A stretch of DNA of 64,000 nucleotides from Minisyncoccia bacterium. Its GTDB lineage: Bacteria > Patescibacteriota > Minisyncoccia > Phycocordibacterales > CAIZLB01. Positions 2,267 through 53,547 of the stretch are shown here, one piece after another (position 1 is the first letter of the stretch; the number at the start of each line of letters is the position of its first letter). Under the pieces are notes generated by a model. That model saw only the letters and a program-made list of their open reading frames with translations. It searched no databases and was not told the DNA's origin. The stretch covers positions 19,156 to 83,155 of the forward strand of contig JBGSHK010000009.1 in the NCBI GenBank assembly GCA_041752275.1, read 5' to 3'. The translations under genes were made by a program, and so were the position numbers.

Positions 2267-3637
2267 ATGCCCATAAAACTCTATAACACCCTTTCAAAAG
2301 AAACCGAAGAAGTAAAACCTATAAAAGAAAACGAGATTTCAATGTATCATTGTGGTCCTACTGTTTATGATTATTTACATATTGGAAATATGAAAATGTA
2401 TGTGTTCGCGGACATACTTAGACGCACTTTTGAATATTCAGGATATAAAGTTAATCAGGTTATAAACATAACTGATGTCGGTCACCTTGTATCAGACGCT
2501 GACGAAGGTGAAGATAAGATGGAAAAAGCTGCAATAAAAAACAATAAAACCGCCAAAGAGATTGCAGAATTTTTTACAAATATTTTCTTTGAAAATTTAG
2601 AAAAAATGAATATAAAATCCGAAGGAACTATTTTTCCAAAAGCAACTGACAATATCCCTGAGCAGATTGCACTTATACAAAAACTAGAAGCGGAAAATCA
2701 TACATATAAAACAGAAGATGGTATTTATTTTGATGTATCAACTTTTCCTGATTATGGCAAGCTTGGAAATATTGACCTTAAAGGACTGCAGGCTGGTCAC
2801 AGAGTTGAATTTAATGAAGAAAAACATACACCATTTGACTTTGCTTTATGGAAATTTTCACCTGTAGAGGAGAAACGTCAACAAGAATGGGACTCTCCTT
2901 GGGGTGTGGGTTTTCCTGGTTGGCATATAGAATGTTCTGCTATGGCCCAAAAATACCTAGGAAACACTTTTGATATACATACTGGCGGTATAGATCATAT
3001 ACCAGGACATCACAATAATGAAATAGCACAGAGTGAATGCGCTAATCATGCTCCCCTTGCAAATATTTGGATGCATGGAGCCTTTATGAATTGGAAAGAT
3101 AAAAAAATGAGTAAATCAGATGGATCTTTTATAACATTGGCTGATTTACAAAAACAAAACATTTTCCCACTGTCATACAGATATTTTTTATTGCAAGCGA
3201 GATATAGTCAACCACTTTTCTTTGAATTAACAGATATTCAAGCATCACAAACAGCTTATCATCGTCTTAAAAATCGTATACAAGATATTTTAAAAAATGA
3301 GACAGAAAACCTAGAGGAAAAAAGTATAGAAAATAAAATCACTGAAATCATAGAAAATGATTTAGACACACCAAACCTTCTGGCATATCTTTGGGAGCTT
3401 ATTAATGCTCAAAAAATTAATAAGAGTATTATAGAAAAATTTGACTCCATACTTGGTCTTAAACTTTTAGAGCGAGATATTATTCCAGATGAAGTTCTGA
3501 CCCTTCAAAAAGAAAGAGATATAGCTCGGACAAATAAAGACTTTGCAAAGTCCGATGAACTTCGTGACAAAATAAAAAACCTCGGATATCAAGTGCTAGA
3601 CAGCAATGACGAATCCGAGATAGTTAAAAGTTGGTAA
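2267..3637 (+). CDS. cysS: Cysteinyl-tRNA synthetase
   Basis: Class I motifs HIGH ([13 protein letters not shown]) and KMSKS (KMSKSDGSF); 456 aa. Confidence 0.92.
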
Positions 3638-46485: not shown

Positions 46486-48367
46486 TTATAAATCTATTAT
46501 ACCATAGGGACAACATTAATAAAGTAAATATTCTTCTTGCTGTAAATTTATCGTTTAGCTTTGATTTACTAAATAAACTTTCTATATAATCAAGGTTACA
46601 TATCTCAGATATAAGCTTATTTTCCATAATAATACTTTTAACTTTATCACTATCCTGTTTAAGCCATATATGCCATGGTGTTGGAAAACCGAGCTTCGGT
46701 CTTTTGTTTGTTCTCTCAGGCATATCTTTTGAAAATGCATCTCTCAATATAAACTTGGTTGTTCCGTTTTTATATTTCCAATCATCTATCAACCCTTCGG
46801 CCACTTTTGATACTTCAACATCCAAAAAAGGGACACGAAGCTCGAGTGAGTTTGCCATAGTCATCTTATCTGCTTTTTGCAATATATCCCCCCTCATCCA
46901 GTTATGTATATCTGCAAATTGCATGTATTCAGATGGAGAAAGTTTTGATACGTCTTGTTGTTGTAAATCAAGCTTCGCTATAAGATCTTGTGCTTTATAG
47001 TTTTTAAAAAGTTTTTCTTTTTCTTTTTCTTTAAACAAGTTTGCATTTCCAATATATCTTGATTGTACTGGTGTTAATGCGCGATTTAAAAAACTTACAC
47101 CGGGAAAACCTGCAAGTACTGGAAATAGTCTTACTTTGAAGTTAACAATGCTCAGAAGTGGTTTTAAAAAAACAAACTTAAACCACTCAGGTTGTTTGCT
47201 TATAAGTTGTATGTATTTGTTATGTGGCTCTTGATATATGCCGTAACCTCCGAAAAGTTCGTCGGCGCCTTCACCTGACAAAACAACTTTTACCTCTTTT
47301 GCCACCTCGCGAGACAATAAGAAAAGTGATATAGCAGAAGGGTCGGCTATAGGCTCATCAAAATGCCAAACACATTTTTTTAAAGATTCAAAATAATCTT
47401 CAAAAGTAACTGTGATTTCTTTATGATCTGATTTTATAAAGTCTGCAAACTCTTTTACATCAAATATTTCACTATCAATATCTTTAAAACCTATAGTATA
47501 TGTTTTCAGGTTTTTACCTTGTGCCTGCATCTCACGCTGTGCGATCATGGCAATGATTGACGAGTCAACACCTGATGACAAAAAAGAAGCAACAGGGACA
47601 TCTGCTATCATGTGATGTTGCACTGAGTCTGTTAGGATTTTTTTTATATCGTCACGAGATTTTTCATAATCAGTATCTCTTTGTTCGTTGAAATTCCATT
47701 GCCAATATTTTTCTATGAGATATTGCCCATTTTCAAGATCAACAGTCAAAGTGTGTCCAGGTGCCAGTTTGTATATGTTTTTGAAAAATGTTTCTTCGTG
47801 GGGATTATATTGAAAACTTACATAGTCAAACACATAGTCAATATTGACATCTCTCTTGACATTTTTATCTTCTAATATTGATTTTATCTCCGATGCAAAT
47901 GCTGAAATTTTTCCATCTTGTAAATTATAATACAATGGTTTAATACCAAAATGGTCTCGCACTATAAAAAGTTTATTTTTTCTTTTGTCATATATAGAGA
48001 ACGCAAACATACCTCTTAGGCGCTTTGGCAGTTCCATACCCCATTCTTCATATCCATGTACAAGGGTTTCCGTATCTGAATGAGTTTTAAAAATATGTCC
48101 CTTTGACTCTAAATCCTTACGGAGTTCTAGATGATTATATATTTCTCCATTAAACACAACTGTAACAGTTTGATCTTCGTTCGATATAGGCTGCTTACCT
48201 GCAGCTATATCTATGATAGAAAGCCGTCTCATACCCATAGCAACGCCTTCGGTGAAAAACATACCTTCATCGTCTGGTCCACGGTGGACAATGCAGTCCA
48301 AAGATCGTTTTAACAAATCTCTGTCTTGTATGATTTTATAGTTTATGAATCCGGATATGCCACACAT
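46472..48367 (-). CDS. asnB: Asparagine synthetase (glutamine-hydrolysing)
   Basis: N-terminal nucleophile MCGISGF, PP-loop SGGVDSS; 631 aa. Confidence 0.9.
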   Translation of the reverse strand: MCGISGFINYKIIQDRDLLKRSLDCIVHRGPDDEGMFFTEGVAMGMRRLSIIDIAAGKQPISNEDQTVTVVFNGEIYNHLELRKDLESKGHIFKTHSDTETLVHGYEEWGMELPKRLRGMFAFSIYDKRKNKLFIVRDHFGIKPLYYNLQDGKISAFASEIKSILEDKNVKRDVNIDYVFDYVSFQYNPHEETFFKNIYKLAPGHTLTVDLENGQYLIEKYWQWNFNEQRDTDYEKSRDDIKKILTDSVQHHMIADVPVASFLSSGVDSSIIAMIAQREMQAQGKNLKTYTIGFKDIDSEIFDVKEFADFIKSDHKEITVTFEDYFESLKKCVWHFDEPIADPSAISLFLLSREVAKEVKVVLSGEGADELFGGYGIYQEPHNKYIQLISKQPEWFKFVFLKPLLSIVNFKVRLFPVLAGFPGVSFLNRALTPVQSRYIGNANLFKEKEKEKLFKNYKAQDLIAKLDLQQQDVSKLSPSEYMQFADIHNWMRGDILQKADKMTMANSLELRVPFLDVEVSKVAEGLIDDWKYKNGTTKFILRDAFSKDMPERTNKRPKLGFPTPWHIWLKQDSDKVKSIIMENKLISEICNLDYIESLFSKSKLNDKFTARRIFTLLMLSLWYNRFINDEK

Positions 48368-48879
48368 AAGGCTTATTTTAGCATAAAAAATATATTGACA
48401 ATATTACCAATATATACGTGATTTCATTCCAAATCATTACAGAAACACGAGAGTAAGTTTTACTCGCAATCAAGAGGACATCTTCAGTTTTTATTTTTGA
48501 TATGTATATAGGCCCACCTATACACAATATGGACTAACGAAGAGCCTTCGTCTGTTGTCCAACATATGCTACATATATACTCTAATCTGCAGTAAGAATA
48601 TACATGTGTATTTGCATACGGGGTGATTCAGTTTATTTACACCCACTTATGAACAATACTATTGTAATGTTATCTTGAAACCATACTACTCGTCCCTTTT
48701 AACTTTCGTATGTGCACTATTCCTTGTTCTAGAAATTATTATGCGAGTCTCTGTAATGATTTGTAATTTTTAATGTGCTCTTCTTATTATAAATACGAGT
48801 TCGATGGTGTAGATATTACAGAAAAAATATTGTGTGGTTTTAGATTTGACAATAATTTTAATTTTGCTATTATACAGAT

Positions 48880-49440
48880 ACAAATGGGTTGTCCCACTTA
48901 TCCGAATCATGTAGATGATTCGGATTTATGTTTTATAAGATTAATTACCTTACTTTCAATTTTGTTAAAATCTTGTTTTGAGATATATCCTATAAACAAA
49001 TACAATCTTTTACTGTCTAGAACTCTTAGTTGCGAAATTATTGCAGACTGTTCAACATCCTTAAGTAATATTTTTATATAATACTTATTATCCTTATTTT
49101 TAGTACTCATAGGTATACCCCAGAATATGTAATTGGAAAATTTTTTAAATACGAGCACAGGTCGGTGGAAATACTCACCTTTACCATTTTGCTCGAATCC
49201 TACGTTCTCACCCATAAAGCACCAGTATACTTGTCCTTCGTTTATAATGAGGTCATTTCTTGGGGTTTTATCAATAATTATCTTTGTTAGTATCCAATCT
49301 ATAAAATGTTTTATCATTCATATATAGTAAAACAAAGCACATAAATTTCTCATAAAGATAAAATAAATTTTCACCGAGGAAATGATAAAAAACTGACCTT
49401 GGAATTAACCTTAGTCAGCTTTTTTATTTTAGATTTTATA
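48880..49440. repeat. Direct repeat copy A (~0.55 kb) containing a MazF-like gene and its upstream region
   Basis: Shares ~80% identity over the ORF with 52455-53020, and near-identity over ~100 bp of upstream non-coding sequence (ataaagataaaataaattttcaccgaggaaatgataaaaaactgaccttggaattaaccttagtcagctttt). Confidence 0.8.
48907..49317 (-). CDS. MazF/PemK/EndoA-like endoribonuclease toxin homolog (paralog A), no obvious antitoxin
   Basis: [30 protein letters not shown] parallels EndoA [40 protein letters not shown] parallels DSVILLEQIRTIDKQRL. ~25-aa N-terminal extension. Confidence 0.65.
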   Translation of the reverse strand: [136 protein letters not shown]

Positions 49441-49443
49441 AAC

Positions 49444-51348
49444 TTATTCCTTAACCTCCGCATCCTTCACCTCACTTTCTGCAGCACTTTCCGGACCAGC
49501 ACTTTCTCCACCTGCAGGATTATTAAATTGCGCTTCTGCTTGTGGATTTGCTTTTGCAATCTCATCATGCACCTTAGCTAACTCTTGAGACAATGCATCA
49601 GTATCAGTTTTTATAGCATTCATATCATCTTTATCTTTAGATAATCTCAAGGCTCCTATCTTAGTTTCTACGGCTGCCACAAGCTCAACACTCAACTTAT
49701 CTTTACTTTCTCTCAAACTCTTCTCAGCTGTGTATATAGCCTGATCTGCAGTGTTTCTAACCTCGATAAGTTCTTTCTTTTTCTTATCCTCTCCTTCATG
49801 TGACTCCGCTTCTTTTTTCATACGTTCTATATCATCTTTTGAAAGACCTGTTGAAGCCTCTATACGTATAGTATTTTCTTTTCCTGAGGCTTTATCTTTG
49901 GCTTTCACATTTAGTATACCGTTAGCATCAACATCAAAAGTAACTTCAACCTGAGGTATACCGCGTGGAGCTGGTGGTATGCCATCAAGAACGAAACGTC
50001 CAAGAGACTTGTTGTCTGTTGCCATAGCTCTTTCACCTTGAACTATATGTATCTCAGTTGATGTTTGATTGTCAGCTGCAGTTGAGAAAACTTGTGAGCG
50101 AGATGTTGGTATAGTAGTGTTTTTCTCTATAAGATGAGTTGCTACACCTCCCATAGTTTCTATACCTAGGGACAATGGAATAACATCAAGTAGAAGTATA
50201 TCTTTAACATCACCTCCAAGTATGCCTCCTTGTACAGCAGCACCGAGTGCTACTACTTCATCAGGGTTTATAGACTGGTTAGGTTCACGACCAAACAACT
50301 CTTTTACAGCCTCTTTTATCTTAGGCATGCGAGTTTGACCTCCAACAAGTATAACTTCTTGTATGTCAGCAATCTTGAAAGGTGAAGCTTCTATAGCTCT
50401 CTTTGTGATTTGTATAGCGCGAGTTATAAACTCATCAGCAATCTCTTCAAGTTTTGCACGACTCATTTTCAAAACTAAATGTTTTGGTCCAGTCGCGTCT
50501 GATGTTATAAAAGGAATGTTTATCTCTGTGTCCACTGCAGATGAAAGCTCTATCTTTGCCTTCTCTGCTGCCTCATCTAGACGTTGCAGTGCCAACGCAT
50601 CAGTTCTAACGTCTATACCAGACTCTTTTTTAAACTCATCTGCAATCCAATGTATGATTTTTTGATCAATATCTTTTCCTCCTAGGTGAGCATCTCCATC
50701 TGTTGATTTTACTTCAACAATATCAGCACCAACTTCAAGTATAGATATGTCAAATGTTCCTCCTCCAAAGTCAAACACCGCTATTTTTTCATCAGCTTTT
50801 TTATTAAAACCATATGCGAGTGCAGCTGCCGTTGGTTCGTTGATAATACGTTTAACATCCAGTCCTGCAATCTTACCAGCATCTTTTGTTGCTTGTCTTT
50901 GTGCATCGTTAAAGTAAGCAGGTACAGTGATCACTGCTTCTGTTATCTTTTCTCCAACACGAGCTTCTGCATCATTTTTCAACTTTGTTAAAATCATCGC
51001 TGATACTTCTTCTGGAGTGTATGTTTTTTCAGCCATAGTTATACCAACACCGTTTGTGTCAGTTTTAACTATCTCAAAAGGTACTGTATCTTTATCTTTC
51101 TGAACATTGTTCTCGTCAAATGAGTGACCGATAAATCTTTTAATACCGAAAACAGTGTTTTTTGGATTTGTTACACCTTGTCTTTTTGCTAAAAGTCCAA
51201 CAAGTCTTTCGCCTGTTTTAGATATAGCAACAATAGATGGTGTTGTACGTGCACCTTCTGCATTTTCTAATATTTTTGGCTCACCTACCTCCATGATAGC
51301 GACAGCTGAGTTTGTTGTTCCAAGATCAATTCCTAATATTTTTGCCAT
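49444..51348 (-). CDS. dnaK: Chaperone DnaK (Hsp70)
   Basis: [32 protein letters not shown]; 634 aa. Confidence 0.95.
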
Positions 51349-51446
51349 AATTTATATATATTTTGTTTATTTATTAATTAATTAATGTTTATAATTGTTT
51401 TAATAATTTCTTACCGTGTTCTCTATTATACACCATGTGTCAAGTC

Positions 51447-52097
51447 CTACTCTGATTGATAAACTTTAACTAACGCCACCCTTATAACCTTGTCATGAAG
51501 CTTATATCCTTTTTGCATTATCATTGAAACCGTGTGATTTTTTTCTTTTTCTGTTGTTGTATCTTGTCCTAAGGCCTCGTAAATATTTGGGTCAAACTGA
51601 TCTCCAACTGTCCCATATGATTCAACACCAACTTTTTTAAGTGCACCGTATATTTTTTCAATGATTGCTTCTATTCCCTTTCTCCAAGCTTCATCAACTG
51701 TGGTCCAGGTCGGTTGGGCTTTAGCTTGTTCATATCCATCGATGATTGGGAGTAAATCGGCAATTAACATTTGATTAGAATATTTGATGATTTCTTGTTT
51801 TCCTTCTTCATCTCGTTTTCTGGCATTTATAAACTCAGCCTTATCTTTTTGCCAGTTAGTTAACATATCCATCTTTTCCTGCTTAACTTGTTTAAGCTCA
51901 TCTTTTAGCTTTTTAAGGGCTGCTTTAGGGTTTTCTGACTCATCCTCGGATATGATGTCGTCTTCGTCTGTGTGGTCCTCTACGTGCTCGATTTCTGGCT
52001 CTAGGGACTCAATTACAGAATCTAGGTCAACCTCAGGCTCTGTGTCTAAATCAATTTTGATTTCTTCATCTTTATTGTCATTTATATCATTATTCAT
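51447..52097 (-). CDS. grpE: Nucleotide exchange factor GrpE
   Basis: Acidic N-terminus, coiled coil, C-terminal GYKLHDKVIRVALVKV. Confidence 0.88.
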   Translation of the reverse strand: MNNDINDNKDEEIKIDLDTEPEVDLDSVIESLEPEIEHVEDHTDEDDIISEDESENPKAALKKLKDELKQVKQEKMDMLTNWQKDKAEFINARKRDEEGKQEIIKYSNQMLIADLLPIIDGYEQAKAQPTWTTVDEAWRKGIEAIIEKIYGALKKVGVESYGTVGDQFDPNIYEALGQDTTTEKEKNHTVSMIMQKGYKLHDKVIRVALVKVYQSE

Positions 52098-52148
52098 AAG
52101 TCTATAATAGCATTTAATAAAAAAATTTACATTGTCGGATTTGGGTTT

Positions 52149-52400
52149 TTATGGGGTAAATTTGTATATTTGTGAGCTATAATATATTGAAACACTTGAA
52201 CATGTTTTACCAAATGCAAAAAGAGAGCTTGCACCCATACCAATAGCCATAAAACCTCCAGTTATTGCACCTTGAGCTGGAGTCATTCCACTGATCAGCC
52301 AATATGGAGCAGTAATGAAGCTACCTCCTCCTCCAGCTATACCACTTAATATACACGCAGCGAAAGTAACAAAAAATGTTATGATATATGCTAAATCCAT
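52149..52400 (-). pseudogene. Truncated TauE/SafE (TSUP) family transporter fragment
   Basis: 83-aa ORF with the signature SGIAGGGGSFITAPYWL, but only about a third of normal length. Confidence 0.4.
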
Positions 52401-52454
52401 GGATATAATATTAACACAAATTTGACAACAAAATATTTTTTGCTAAACTATAAG

Positions 52455-53020
52455 TACAAATGGGTTATTCCACACGCTAGGACCATAAAGGTCCAGCCTA
52501 ATATCTCCAGATAATATCAATTATCCGGTTTTGTATTTTATTAAAATCTGCTCTTGATATATAACCAATATATTCATCTAGTCTTTTACTGTCCAGAACT
52601 CTGAGCTGAGATATCATGGCCGATTGCTCTACATCCTTAAGTAAAATTTTTACATAATATTTATTGTCTTTGTTTTTTGTAGTCAAAGGTATACCCCAGA
52701 ATAAATTATTGTTAAACTTTTTAAATATCAACACAGGACGACGAAAAATCTCACCTTTGCCATTTTCCTCATCTCCCACATTTTCACCTAAAGAGCACCG
52801 AAAAACTTGATATTCATTTATGATGACATCCCGCCTTTCTGTTTTATCCATGATTATCTTTGTTAGTATCCAATCTATAAAATGTTTTATCATTTATCTA
52901 TAATAGAATAATCCACATAAAGTTCTGATAAAGATAAAATAAATTTTCACCGAAGAAATGATAAAAAAACTGACCTTGGAATTAACCTTAGTCAGCTTTT
53001 TATTTTGAGGTTTATAAAGT
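52455..53020. repeat. Direct repeat copy B (~0.55 kb) containing a MazF-like gene and its upstream region
   Basis: See copy A. The shared ends are tacaaatgggtt...ccac (low-coordinate side) and ...cttagtcagcttttt (high-coordinate side). Confidence 0.8.
52498..52893 (-). CDS. MazF/PemK/EndoA-like endoribonuclease toxin homolog (paralog B)
   Basis: Same motifs as paralog A: [22 protein letters not shown] and [15 protein letters not shown]. ~75% identical to paralog A. Confidence 0.65.
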   Translation of the reverse strand: [131 protein letters not shown]

Positions 53021-53139
53021 TTCCAAACAAAAAACTCCGCCATACGACGAAGTTTTTGTATATTATCTCTTTGTCCACGTACAGTCTGCTCGCATGCTCG
53101 CAACGACTGTTGCTCCGCACCCGAGTAAACGTTAAACTG

Positions 53140-53547
53140 TTAACGTTTACTCCATTGTTTACTCTTTCTCGCTTTCTTCAAACCGAATTTTCTTCTTTCT
53201 TTAGCTCTACCGTCTCTTGTTAGAAATCCTTCTTTTTTAAGTGGAGCTCTAAGCTCTGCATCAAAAGCCTCAAGAGCTCTTGCTATACCAAGTCTTACAG
53301 ACTCTGCTTGACCGTTGATACCACCACCTGTAACTTTAACTGTGATCTCGAAACCTTTTTCAGGTAGAGTTTTAACCAAAGACTCTATAGATAGGTTTTG
53401 TAGCTCTGGAGTTTTAAAATAATCTGTATGTTCTTTATCATTTATAACTACAGATGTTTTTGTAGCTGGTGTTATACGAACTCTTGCAGAAGATGTTTTT
53501 CTTCTTCCTACTGCTTCGAAGTATTTTGATGTTGATTTTGTTGCCAT
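53140..53547 (-). CDS. rpsI: 30S ribosomal protein S9
   Basis: C-terminal ...KKARKSKQWSKR. Confidence 0.9.
   Translation of the reverse strand: MATKSTSKYFEAVGRRKTSSARVRITPATKTSVVINDKEHTDYFKTPELQNLSIESLVKTLPEKGFEITVKVTGGGINGQAESVRLGIARALEAFDAELRAPLKKEGFLTRDGRAKERRKFGLKKARKSKQWSKR

Follow-up and report, generated by a model that had tools for sequence, protein, structure and literature searches.

Two genes for MazF-like proteins, the only ones in the 64,000-nucleotide stretch of a Minisyncoccia bacterium (Patescibacteriota; contig JBGSHK010000009.1, positions 19,156 to 83,155) that is analysed here and called the window below, are each adjoined by a convergent gene for a small RNA (sRNA), which had been overlooked in a first-pass annotation of the same DNA. 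This small structured RNA gene was previously undescribed: no Rfam family matches it, as searches of positions 48300-53200 at E<=5 and of six related loci at E<=1 returned nothing, and a search of the literature turned up no account of an sRNA partner for a MazF of Patescibacteria. It is quite probable that the sRNA is the antitoxin or the controller of the adjacent toxin, because gene and RNA are tightly coupled across deep divergence and many contexts, a protein antitoxin is absent, and a strong RNA promoter faces a weak toxin promoter. With somewhat less assurance, the pair can be described as a compact, multi-copy module of the Patescibacteria (also known as the candidate phyla radiation, CPR) in which a MazF-like toxin probably stands under sRNA control, that is, as an RNA-controlled toxin-antitoxin module. 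The suggestion that the two toxins could be orphans is superseded by this candidate RNA antitoxin, encoded in a conserved convergent gene beside each copy; the first-pass annotation had itself named a conserved antitoxin gene adjacent to both copies as a finding that would speak against its view, and the sRNA comes close to just that.

Comparison of the flanks of six copies reveals a block of ~52 nt directly after the mazF stop codon that is more conserved than the coding sequence (CDS), and that reads, on the strand opposite mazF, TTGACA, 16 nt, TGnTAnnnT, 6 nt and ACAAAUGG, followed by hairpins. An independent consensus scan of positions 48700-53200 places the two sRNA promoters at the top of its ranking, with that of sRNA-A as the best site, and they are the only sites with an extended -10 element. 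Judging by the predicted transcript ends, sRNA-A overlaps the stop and last codons of mazF-A by ~30 nt, and sRNA-B those of mazF-B by ~45 nt (Table 1). Hairpin 1 of sRNA-B includes a G-U pair that is valid on the plus strand only. The terminator of sRNA-B failed a strict terminator scan, which the orthologous hairpin passed in three related loci (L001, L020b and L014). No tandem repeats occur beside either mazF-like gene. An AUG inside ACAAAUGG was considered as the start of a small peptide and rejected, since it is missing in many loci (AAAUUG, AAACGG) and the frames run for 6, 14 or 65 codons.

The association of the two genes extends well beyond the window. A degenerate 42-nt motif derived from the six copies finds no site in the window apart from the 3' flanks of the two mazF genes, with none expected by chance, and among GTDB species genomes it yields 12 matches, all of them in Patescibacteria and all 19-74 nt past a MazF-like open reading frame (ORF). 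A protein-based metagenome scan returned 80 loci, at 35-78% protein identity, most of which have the same architecture. Among 91 distinct 3' flanks of MazF-like genes, 73 fit a fuzzy antisense pattern of promoter plus leader and nine more are covariance-model matches; altogether, the sRNA architecture follows the MazF-like gene in at least 82 of the 91 distinct Patescibacteria loci, with proteins down to 35% identity and in unrelated genomic contexts. Conversely, 49 of the 54 covariance-model matches, whose E-values are rough, adjoin a MazF-like ORF in antisense orientation, the five exceptions being the weakest matches. A motif scan of IMG/VR for phage-borne modules found nothing. Two individual loci may be added as separate observations. 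In L042 (2908-2985, minus strand), one MazF-like gene is followed by a tandem pair of sRNA cores (51.5 and 28.5 bits), the sole repeated RNA unit seen. In L001 (1212-1250, minus strand), a weak core match (17.5 bits with model R1, 27.3 with model R2) follows a 114-aa non-MazF ORF at the rpsI-grpE junction, and may be the remnant of a lost module.

Single sequences recurrently fold into a free leader of 6 nt with the conserved pattern A-Y-A-A-A-Y, hairpin 1, hairpin 2 and a terminator. In the model alignment, which was fitted to the covariance model and so leans towards its structure, 99.4% of the cells are paired compared with 77.6% in shuffles and 43-60% in slid controls, and compensatory changes occur in 10 of 10 pairs. 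In a structure-blind MAFFT alignment of the 14 sequences of the window subtype, 91.6% are paired compared with 80.3% in shuffles and 20-66% in slid controls, with double changes in seven of 11 pairs. Hairpin 1 exists in more than 10 complementary versions. The RNA lies on the strand opposite mazF: read on this antisense strand, 33 of 72 hairpin-1 loops are UUCG tetraloops, and 32 of 61 hairpin-2 loops are of the GNRA or UUCG type; the corresponding numbers on the sense strand, that of mazF, are 0 for hairpin 1 and 1 for hairpin 2. Paralogs inside one genome carry differing hairpin-2 sequences, which fits cognate pairing between each RNA and its own toxin.

Of the 73 loci that fit the promoter pattern, 64 have TTGACA or TTGACT as their -35 box, 66 a spacer of 16 or 17 nt and 52 an extended -10 TG, and in 60 the leader begins 6 nt past the -10 box. 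A terminator composed of a hairpin and a U-run can be recognized in 53 of them; the predicted RNAs have a median length of 77 nt and overlap mazF by a median of 26 nt. The predicted RNA reaches into the mazF stop or last codons in 43 of these 53 loci, about 10 being without CDS overlap. In the main subtype an A-run and a U-run flank the terminator hairpin, which is thus probably bidirectional and shared with mazF.

The proteins themselves are, as the first-pass annotation had proposed, MazF/PemK paralogs with ~75% identity (75.0% over 128 aa). Both pass the profile check against Pfam PF02452 (PemK_toxin), at 35.4 and 45.7 bits for a gathering score of 23.1, and the family profile matches the S. 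aureus MazF and B. subtilis EndoA chains in the PDB with E 4e-6 to 5e-5. In an AlphaFold2 model of copy B (pLDDT 84, pTM 0.78), the MazF barrel is preceded by a helix at residues 2-17 and followed by a C-terminal helix; the model's top 50 Foldseek matches in the PDB are all MazF (TM 0.55-0.77), and a ToxN-type structure is absent from these 50. The first of these helices is the unusual N-terminal extension noticed earlier, which is thus real: it is Lys-rich and family-specific, with no counterpart in solved MazFs. R52, the catalytic Arg of the RPV motif, is invariant in 64 family sequences, and the column equivalent to Thr48, aligned to the Thr of AAIT in S. aureus MazF, holds Ser or Thr; published work on MazF assigns the catalytic roles to R25 of B. 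subtilis MazF and to T48. With these residues kept, RNase activity is predicted from family and fold. Copy A only has a match to the NCBIfam model CptIN, a type III toxin model, at E 0.0024 and 17.7 bits, far under the cut-off of 90. The subfamily comprises 268 clusters (50% identity) at E<=1e-30 and ~1,800 at E<=1e-10, and is annotated in Patescibacteria only, bar one record labelled Arenimonas. PADLOC gave no match to a defence system.

No MazE/PemI gene adjoins either copy, in keeping with the earlier impression that a MazE-like antitoxin ORF was lacking: the upstream spacer of copy A spans 126 nt, taken up by terminator and promoter, and the downstream spacer of copy B spans 97 nt, too little space for a MazE gene. 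Likewise, no conserved neighbouring ORF is present in L001, L002, L005, L020, L102, L104 or L105. The 69-aa ORF that was reported to abut copy B (52894-53103) does exist and has no family match; it is most likely spurious, because its reading frame crosses the terminator hairpin and the promoter. The hairpin in question, with stem CTGAC..GTCAG between A and T runs, had also been described before and is indeed present in both copies. It accompanies the module in L001, L014, L020b, L022 and L104, each time behind different genes, and we interpret it as shielding the module from transcriptional read-through from either side. Downstream of it, a putative mazF promoter has a -10 box that, on visual inspection, ends exactly 6 nt 5' of the ATG in all 14 window-type loci, and scores under the threshold of the consensus promoter scan. 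This suggests a weak promoter and, because of the position of the -10 box, an mRNA that would be leaderless or nearly so. In loci of another subfamily (L056, L057, L075, L077, L089 and L101), a different conserved hairpin, CTGGTAATTTTTACCAG then ATTTTGTTTTAATA, lies ~20-50 nt 5' of the MazF-like ATG and occupies the place of the window-type insulator hairpin.

Taken together, the parts of the module might operate as follows. The upstream bidirectional terminator hairpin would insulate the module, and the weak mazF promoter would give rise to a leaderless or near-leaderless mRNA for a MazF/PemK-fold endoribonuclease, the presumed toxin. From its strong, near-consensus promoter, the convergent gene would produce a structured sRNA of 55-90 nt whose terminator overlaps the end of mazF. 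Being abundant, this sRNA would, in the manner of a type III RNA antitoxin, bind and block the MazF-like dimer with its two hairpins and its conserved single-stranded leader AYAAAY, while the N-terminal helix of the protein may serve as an RNA-binding adaptor; loss of the unstable sRNA would then free the RNase. Direct binding of the sRNA to the protein is the likeliest mode of action, albeit one that we propose tentatively. It is favoured over an antisense mechanism because the conserved, covarying part of the sRNA, its 5' domain, lies outside the mRNA, because complementarity to the 5' end of the mazF mRNA is not in excess (mean z -0.16), and because some loci lack the overlap. A pairing of the sRNA 5' domain with the mazF mRNA 5' end, as in the par system, was rejected on the same complementarity result. 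A bolder and still more tentative version holds that the AYAAAY leader may act as a pseudo-substrate and the N-terminal helix as an RNA adaptor, in which case these proteins would form an RNA-antitoxin branch of MazF that links type II MazEF with type III ToxIN-like systems.

Compared with the type II MazEF/PemIK systems (MazF, EndoA/YdcE, PemK, Kid; PF02452), the module has the same toxin family and fold, including the catalytic Arg and the Ser/Thr at the Thr48 position. It differs from them in the absence of an adjacent MazE/PemI in any locus examined here, in the extra N-terminal helix, in its convergent structured sRNA partner and in the presence of several copies in tiny Patescibacteria genomes. 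With type III systems (ToxIN, CptIN, TenpIN), it has in common a predicted endoribonuclease toxin, a small structured RNA with an A-rich single-stranded stretch and the lack of a protein antitoxin. The fold of ToxN is related to that of Kid/MazF, yet the toxins here belong to a different family, as the CptIN score and the top fold matches indicate. Moreover, the RNA is a single unit located downstream, on the opposite strand and under its own promoter, whereas type III antitoxins form a tandem array upstream, on the same strand, with a terminator between array and toxin. The system does not have the full set of defining features of either type I or type III.

Several points weigh against an sRNA-controlled toxin, the first two being this departure from the type III layout and the fact that a convergent arrangement with 3' overlap is a hallmark of type I. 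The covariance models R1 and R2, which represent the commoner sRNA subtype, miss the window subtype even with filters off, so that the two subtypes are tied together only by the 42-nt motif, the geometry and the separate 14-sequence alignment. The promoter counts are partly circular, as the loci were gathered with the fuzzy promoter pattern, and rules for sigma-70-like promoters and intrinsic terminators are assumed to hold for Patescibacteria. All sequences come from metagenome-assembled genomes or metagenomes, the sRNA is predicted from sequence, and the toxicity of the proteins is, like their RNase activity, predicted from family and fold.

The type I resemblance leads to a different explanation, possible but rather unlikely, in which the convergent sRNA acts on RNA rather than on protein: it would anneal to the mazF mRNA at its 3' end, over the terminator that the two genes share, and so cause the message to decay. 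In a variant of it, the strong sRNA promoter would repress mazF by transcriptional interference. In either form, the 5' hairpins would only stabilise the sRNA. Type I systems with 3'-overlapping convergent RNAs include txpA/RatA and bsrG/SR4 of B. subtilis and par of E. faecalis (Fst/RNA II), the latter with a shared bidirectional terminator. The module resembles them in that the genes are convergent, with a predicted overlap at the stop and last codons in most loci, the window included, that the hairpin with its A-run and U-run would serve as a common bidirectional terminator, and that a strong promoter drives the sRNA and a weak one the toxin. However, the overlap is short, at ~25-45 nt, and falls inside the self-paired stem of the terminator, and it is missing from about a fifth of the loci with a recognizable terminator. 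The part of the RNA that is conserved in sequence and covaries lies outside the mRNA and has no complementarity to it, the mRNA 5' end included. Finally, type I toxins are small hydrophobic membrane peptides, unlike the MazF-fold proteins of 131-136 aa found here, which are predicted to be soluble RNases.

It is improbable that the sRNA is not an antitoxin at all. In that case, restraint of the MazF-like protein would come from its own N-terminal helix or from a protein whose gene lies elsewhere, or the MazF-like protein would be a non-toxic housekeeping RNase; the sRNA would simply accompany the gene, as an independent regulator, a substrate or a guide. Toxin homologs without a partner are common, and antitoxins acting in trans are known (PMC2701414, PMC4803016). 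For instance, MazF-mx of Myxococcus xanthus is solitary, like the proteins described here in having no adjacent mazE, and is reported to be inhibited by the distant transcription factor MrpC (PMC4803016); the MazF-like genes described here differ in that a conserved sRNA gene is physically coupled to them. The family-specific helix and the persistence of several copies in very small genomes would also suit such an explanation. Against it stand the coupling of gene and sRNA in nearly all loci, unrelated contexts and strongly diverged proteins included, the conserved catalytic residues, and the different hairpin-2 sequences of same-genome paralogs, which agree better with cognate pairing.

The remaining question is why the two modules flank dnaK and grpE. 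All genes of the region are on the minus strand, in the order rpsD-rpoA-rplQ-rplM-rpsI, MazF-like B, an 83-aa ORF, grpE, dnaK, MazF-like A, ~460 nt of non-coding DNA and asnB. The direct repeats noticed in the first pass can be delimited to 48844-49436 and 52420-53013 (~593 bp, offset 3576-3577, in several ungapped blocks). They contain the MazF-like gene and the sRNA gene and nothing else. Each repeat is one complete, self-contained module, its limits being those of the functional module, because it starts at the upstream hairpin and encloses the promoter and the mazF-like gene. In four relatives, the backbone rpsI...grpE-dnaK...asnB stays constant with zero, one or two modules at its junctions. 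Thus, L104 reads rpsI-[A-type, 94%]-grpE-dnaK-...-asnB; L105 reads [B-type, 93%]-grpE-dnaK-241aa-asnB, with the B-type at the same junction as in the window; and L001 reads rpsI-114aa-262aa-grpE-dnaK-242aa-[B-like, 83%]-asnB. The A-type module occupies different junctions in the window and in L104, where its 94%-identical ortholog is found, and in L102 a B-type copy adjoins GluRS. Modules have hence been gained, lost or swapped at the two junctions, and dnaK-grpE lies between two of them because both backbone junctions are sites where modules settle. The 114-aa ORF of L001 was considered as a diverged MazF and its 262-aa ORF as a full-length TauE, and both were rejected, as neither is similar.

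Elsewhere, modules are found alone or in tandem in many unrelated housekeeping contexts. At least two copies lie within a few kb in 13 of ~101 loci, one 365-kb contig holds three copies, two of them in tandem, and L020 has two around gyrB (pheT-MazF-119aa-gyrB-MazF). Local arrays or fragments with 2-4 MazF-like genes, some apparently truncated, are seen in L064 (1692-3881), L012, L028, L031, L038, L089, L093 and L094, which suggests frequent local duplication and decay of MazF-like genes.

The two copies in the window have exchanged sequence as well. In the non-coding DNA upstream of the genes, identity between the copies is 88% across 112 nt and rises to 94% in the distal 67 nt, with uninterrupted matches of 38 and 26 nt. 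For the CDS, counted from nt 61 onwards, it is 72%, the initial 60 nt being conserved throughout the family. The near-identity of the non-coding part, and its excess over the coding part, had been pointed out correctly. Over the same distal 67 nt, copy A is 74% identical to its L104 ortholog and copy B 82% to L001, and all other segments follow orthology. This pattern indicates a gene-conversion tract of ~70 nt within this genome, which would account for the excess of non-coding over coding conservation in the comparison of A with B.

The 83-aa ORF between module B and grpE, taken in the first pass for a TauE/SafE remnant and a sign of rearrangement, is indeed an insertion relative to L104 and L105, where the conserved grpE upstream sequence ACCCCATAAAAACCC directly adjoins the module; its last codons run into ACCCCATAAAAACCC. 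Its match to the TauE profile is below threshold (20.6 bits for a cut-off of 32.6, E 3.9e-4).

It is very improbable that repeats and Hsp70 genes form a composite, recombination-prone cassette from which dnaK-grpE is excised or amplified while the toxins are orphans, as was first supposed: the repeats are direct and share exact blocks of 42, 38 and 26 nt, the conversion tract shows that the copies do recombine, and the L020 copies likewise bracket a housekeeping gene, but grpE-dnaK keeps its place between rpsI and asnB whatever the number of modules, the module is also found singly or as tandem copies in numerous other settings, a conserved sRNA partner stands beside each toxin, loss of the sole visible dnaK-grpE would probably be deleterious, and neither a transposase or integrase among the called genes nor terminal inverted repeats at the module ends were noticed, no systematic search for them having been made. 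Of the earlier proposal, recombination between the copies is supported, and dnaK-grpE as excisable cargo is not.

Two further structures lie close to the modules. A perfect 13-bp palindromic hairpin (GAGTAAACGTTAAAC..GTTAACGTTTACTC) at 53123-53152 overlaps the rpsI stop and is distinct from the module's own hairpin, ~120 nt away. A GC-richer non-coding stretch of ~350 nt that separates MazF-like A from asnB (48420-48770, minus strand favoured) is a candidate for a structured non-coding RNA of a new kind. Its folding z is -4.86 on the minus and -2.26 on the plus strand, a long closing stem pairs 48426-48449 with 48744-48767, and no Rfam family matches it. A copy with 84% identity over 365 nt is found in L014, also right after a MazF module, with 4 compensatory pairs of 79, and the region is missing from L001.

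Table 1. Features of the two modules and of the intervening genes (window positions; aa, amino acids; z, folding z-score; transcript ends are predicted)
Feature	Position	Strand	Remarks
sRNA-A promoter	48846-48873	+	TTGACA, 16 nt, TG-n-TATTAT; 11/12 consensus positions plus extended -10
sRNA-A, ~57 nt	48880-48936	+	leader ACAAAU 48880-48885; hairpin 1 GGGUUGUCCC 48886-48895; z -3.6
sRNA-A hairpin 2, also terminator	48902-48923	+	U-rich tail to 48936; terminator-like site 48900-48925 in scan
mazF-like gene A, 136 aa	48907-49317	-	MazF/PemK fold plus N-terminal helix; P0029 in relatives set
Putative weak mazF promoter, module A	49324-49353	-	-35-like ATGAGA 49348-49353, 18-nt spacer, -10 TACTAT 49324-49329
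Putative bidirectional terminator/insulator hairpin, module A	49387-49424	-	A-run, stem CTGAC..GTCAG, T-run; z -5.3; 19 nt past dnaK stop
dnaK	49444-51348	-	housekeeping backbone, fixed by synteny, not cargo
grpE	51447-52097	-	housekeeping backbone, fixed by synteny, not cargo
TauE/SafE-like N-terminal fragment, 83-aa ORF	52149-52400	-	passenger
sRNA-B promoter	52422-52449	+	TTGACA, 16 nt, TG-n-TAAACT; consensus promoter scan
sRNA-B, ~87 nt	52456-52542	+	leader ACAAAU; hairpin 1 GGGUUAUUCC 52462-52471; hairpin 2 52476-52497; z -3.2
sRNA-B terminator hairpin	52507-52528	+	one A-C mismatch; U-tail to 52542
mazF-like gene B, 131 aa	52498-52893	-	MazF/PemK fold plus N-terminal helix; P0001 in relatives set (exact match)
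Putative weak mazF promoter, module B	52900-52929	-	-35-like ATCAGA 52924-52929, -10 TATTAT 52900-52905
Putative bidirectional terminator/insulator hairpin, module B	52964-53001	-	CTGAC..GTCAG, A/T runs; z -4.7

In annotation, the current label for these genes is "type II PemK/MazF family toxin", although no type II partner accompanies them, and the module supplies annotators with a rule. For a large MazF subfamily without a protein antitoxin, a dedicated sRNA gene offers a specific and testable answer to the question of what restrains the toxin. If the sRNA is the antitoxin, RNA antitoxins would reach the best-studied type II toxin fold, and a defined RNA-protein pair would become available for structural work. 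It would also explain how Patescibacteria, with their minimal genomes, hold several RNase toxins without antitoxin proteins.

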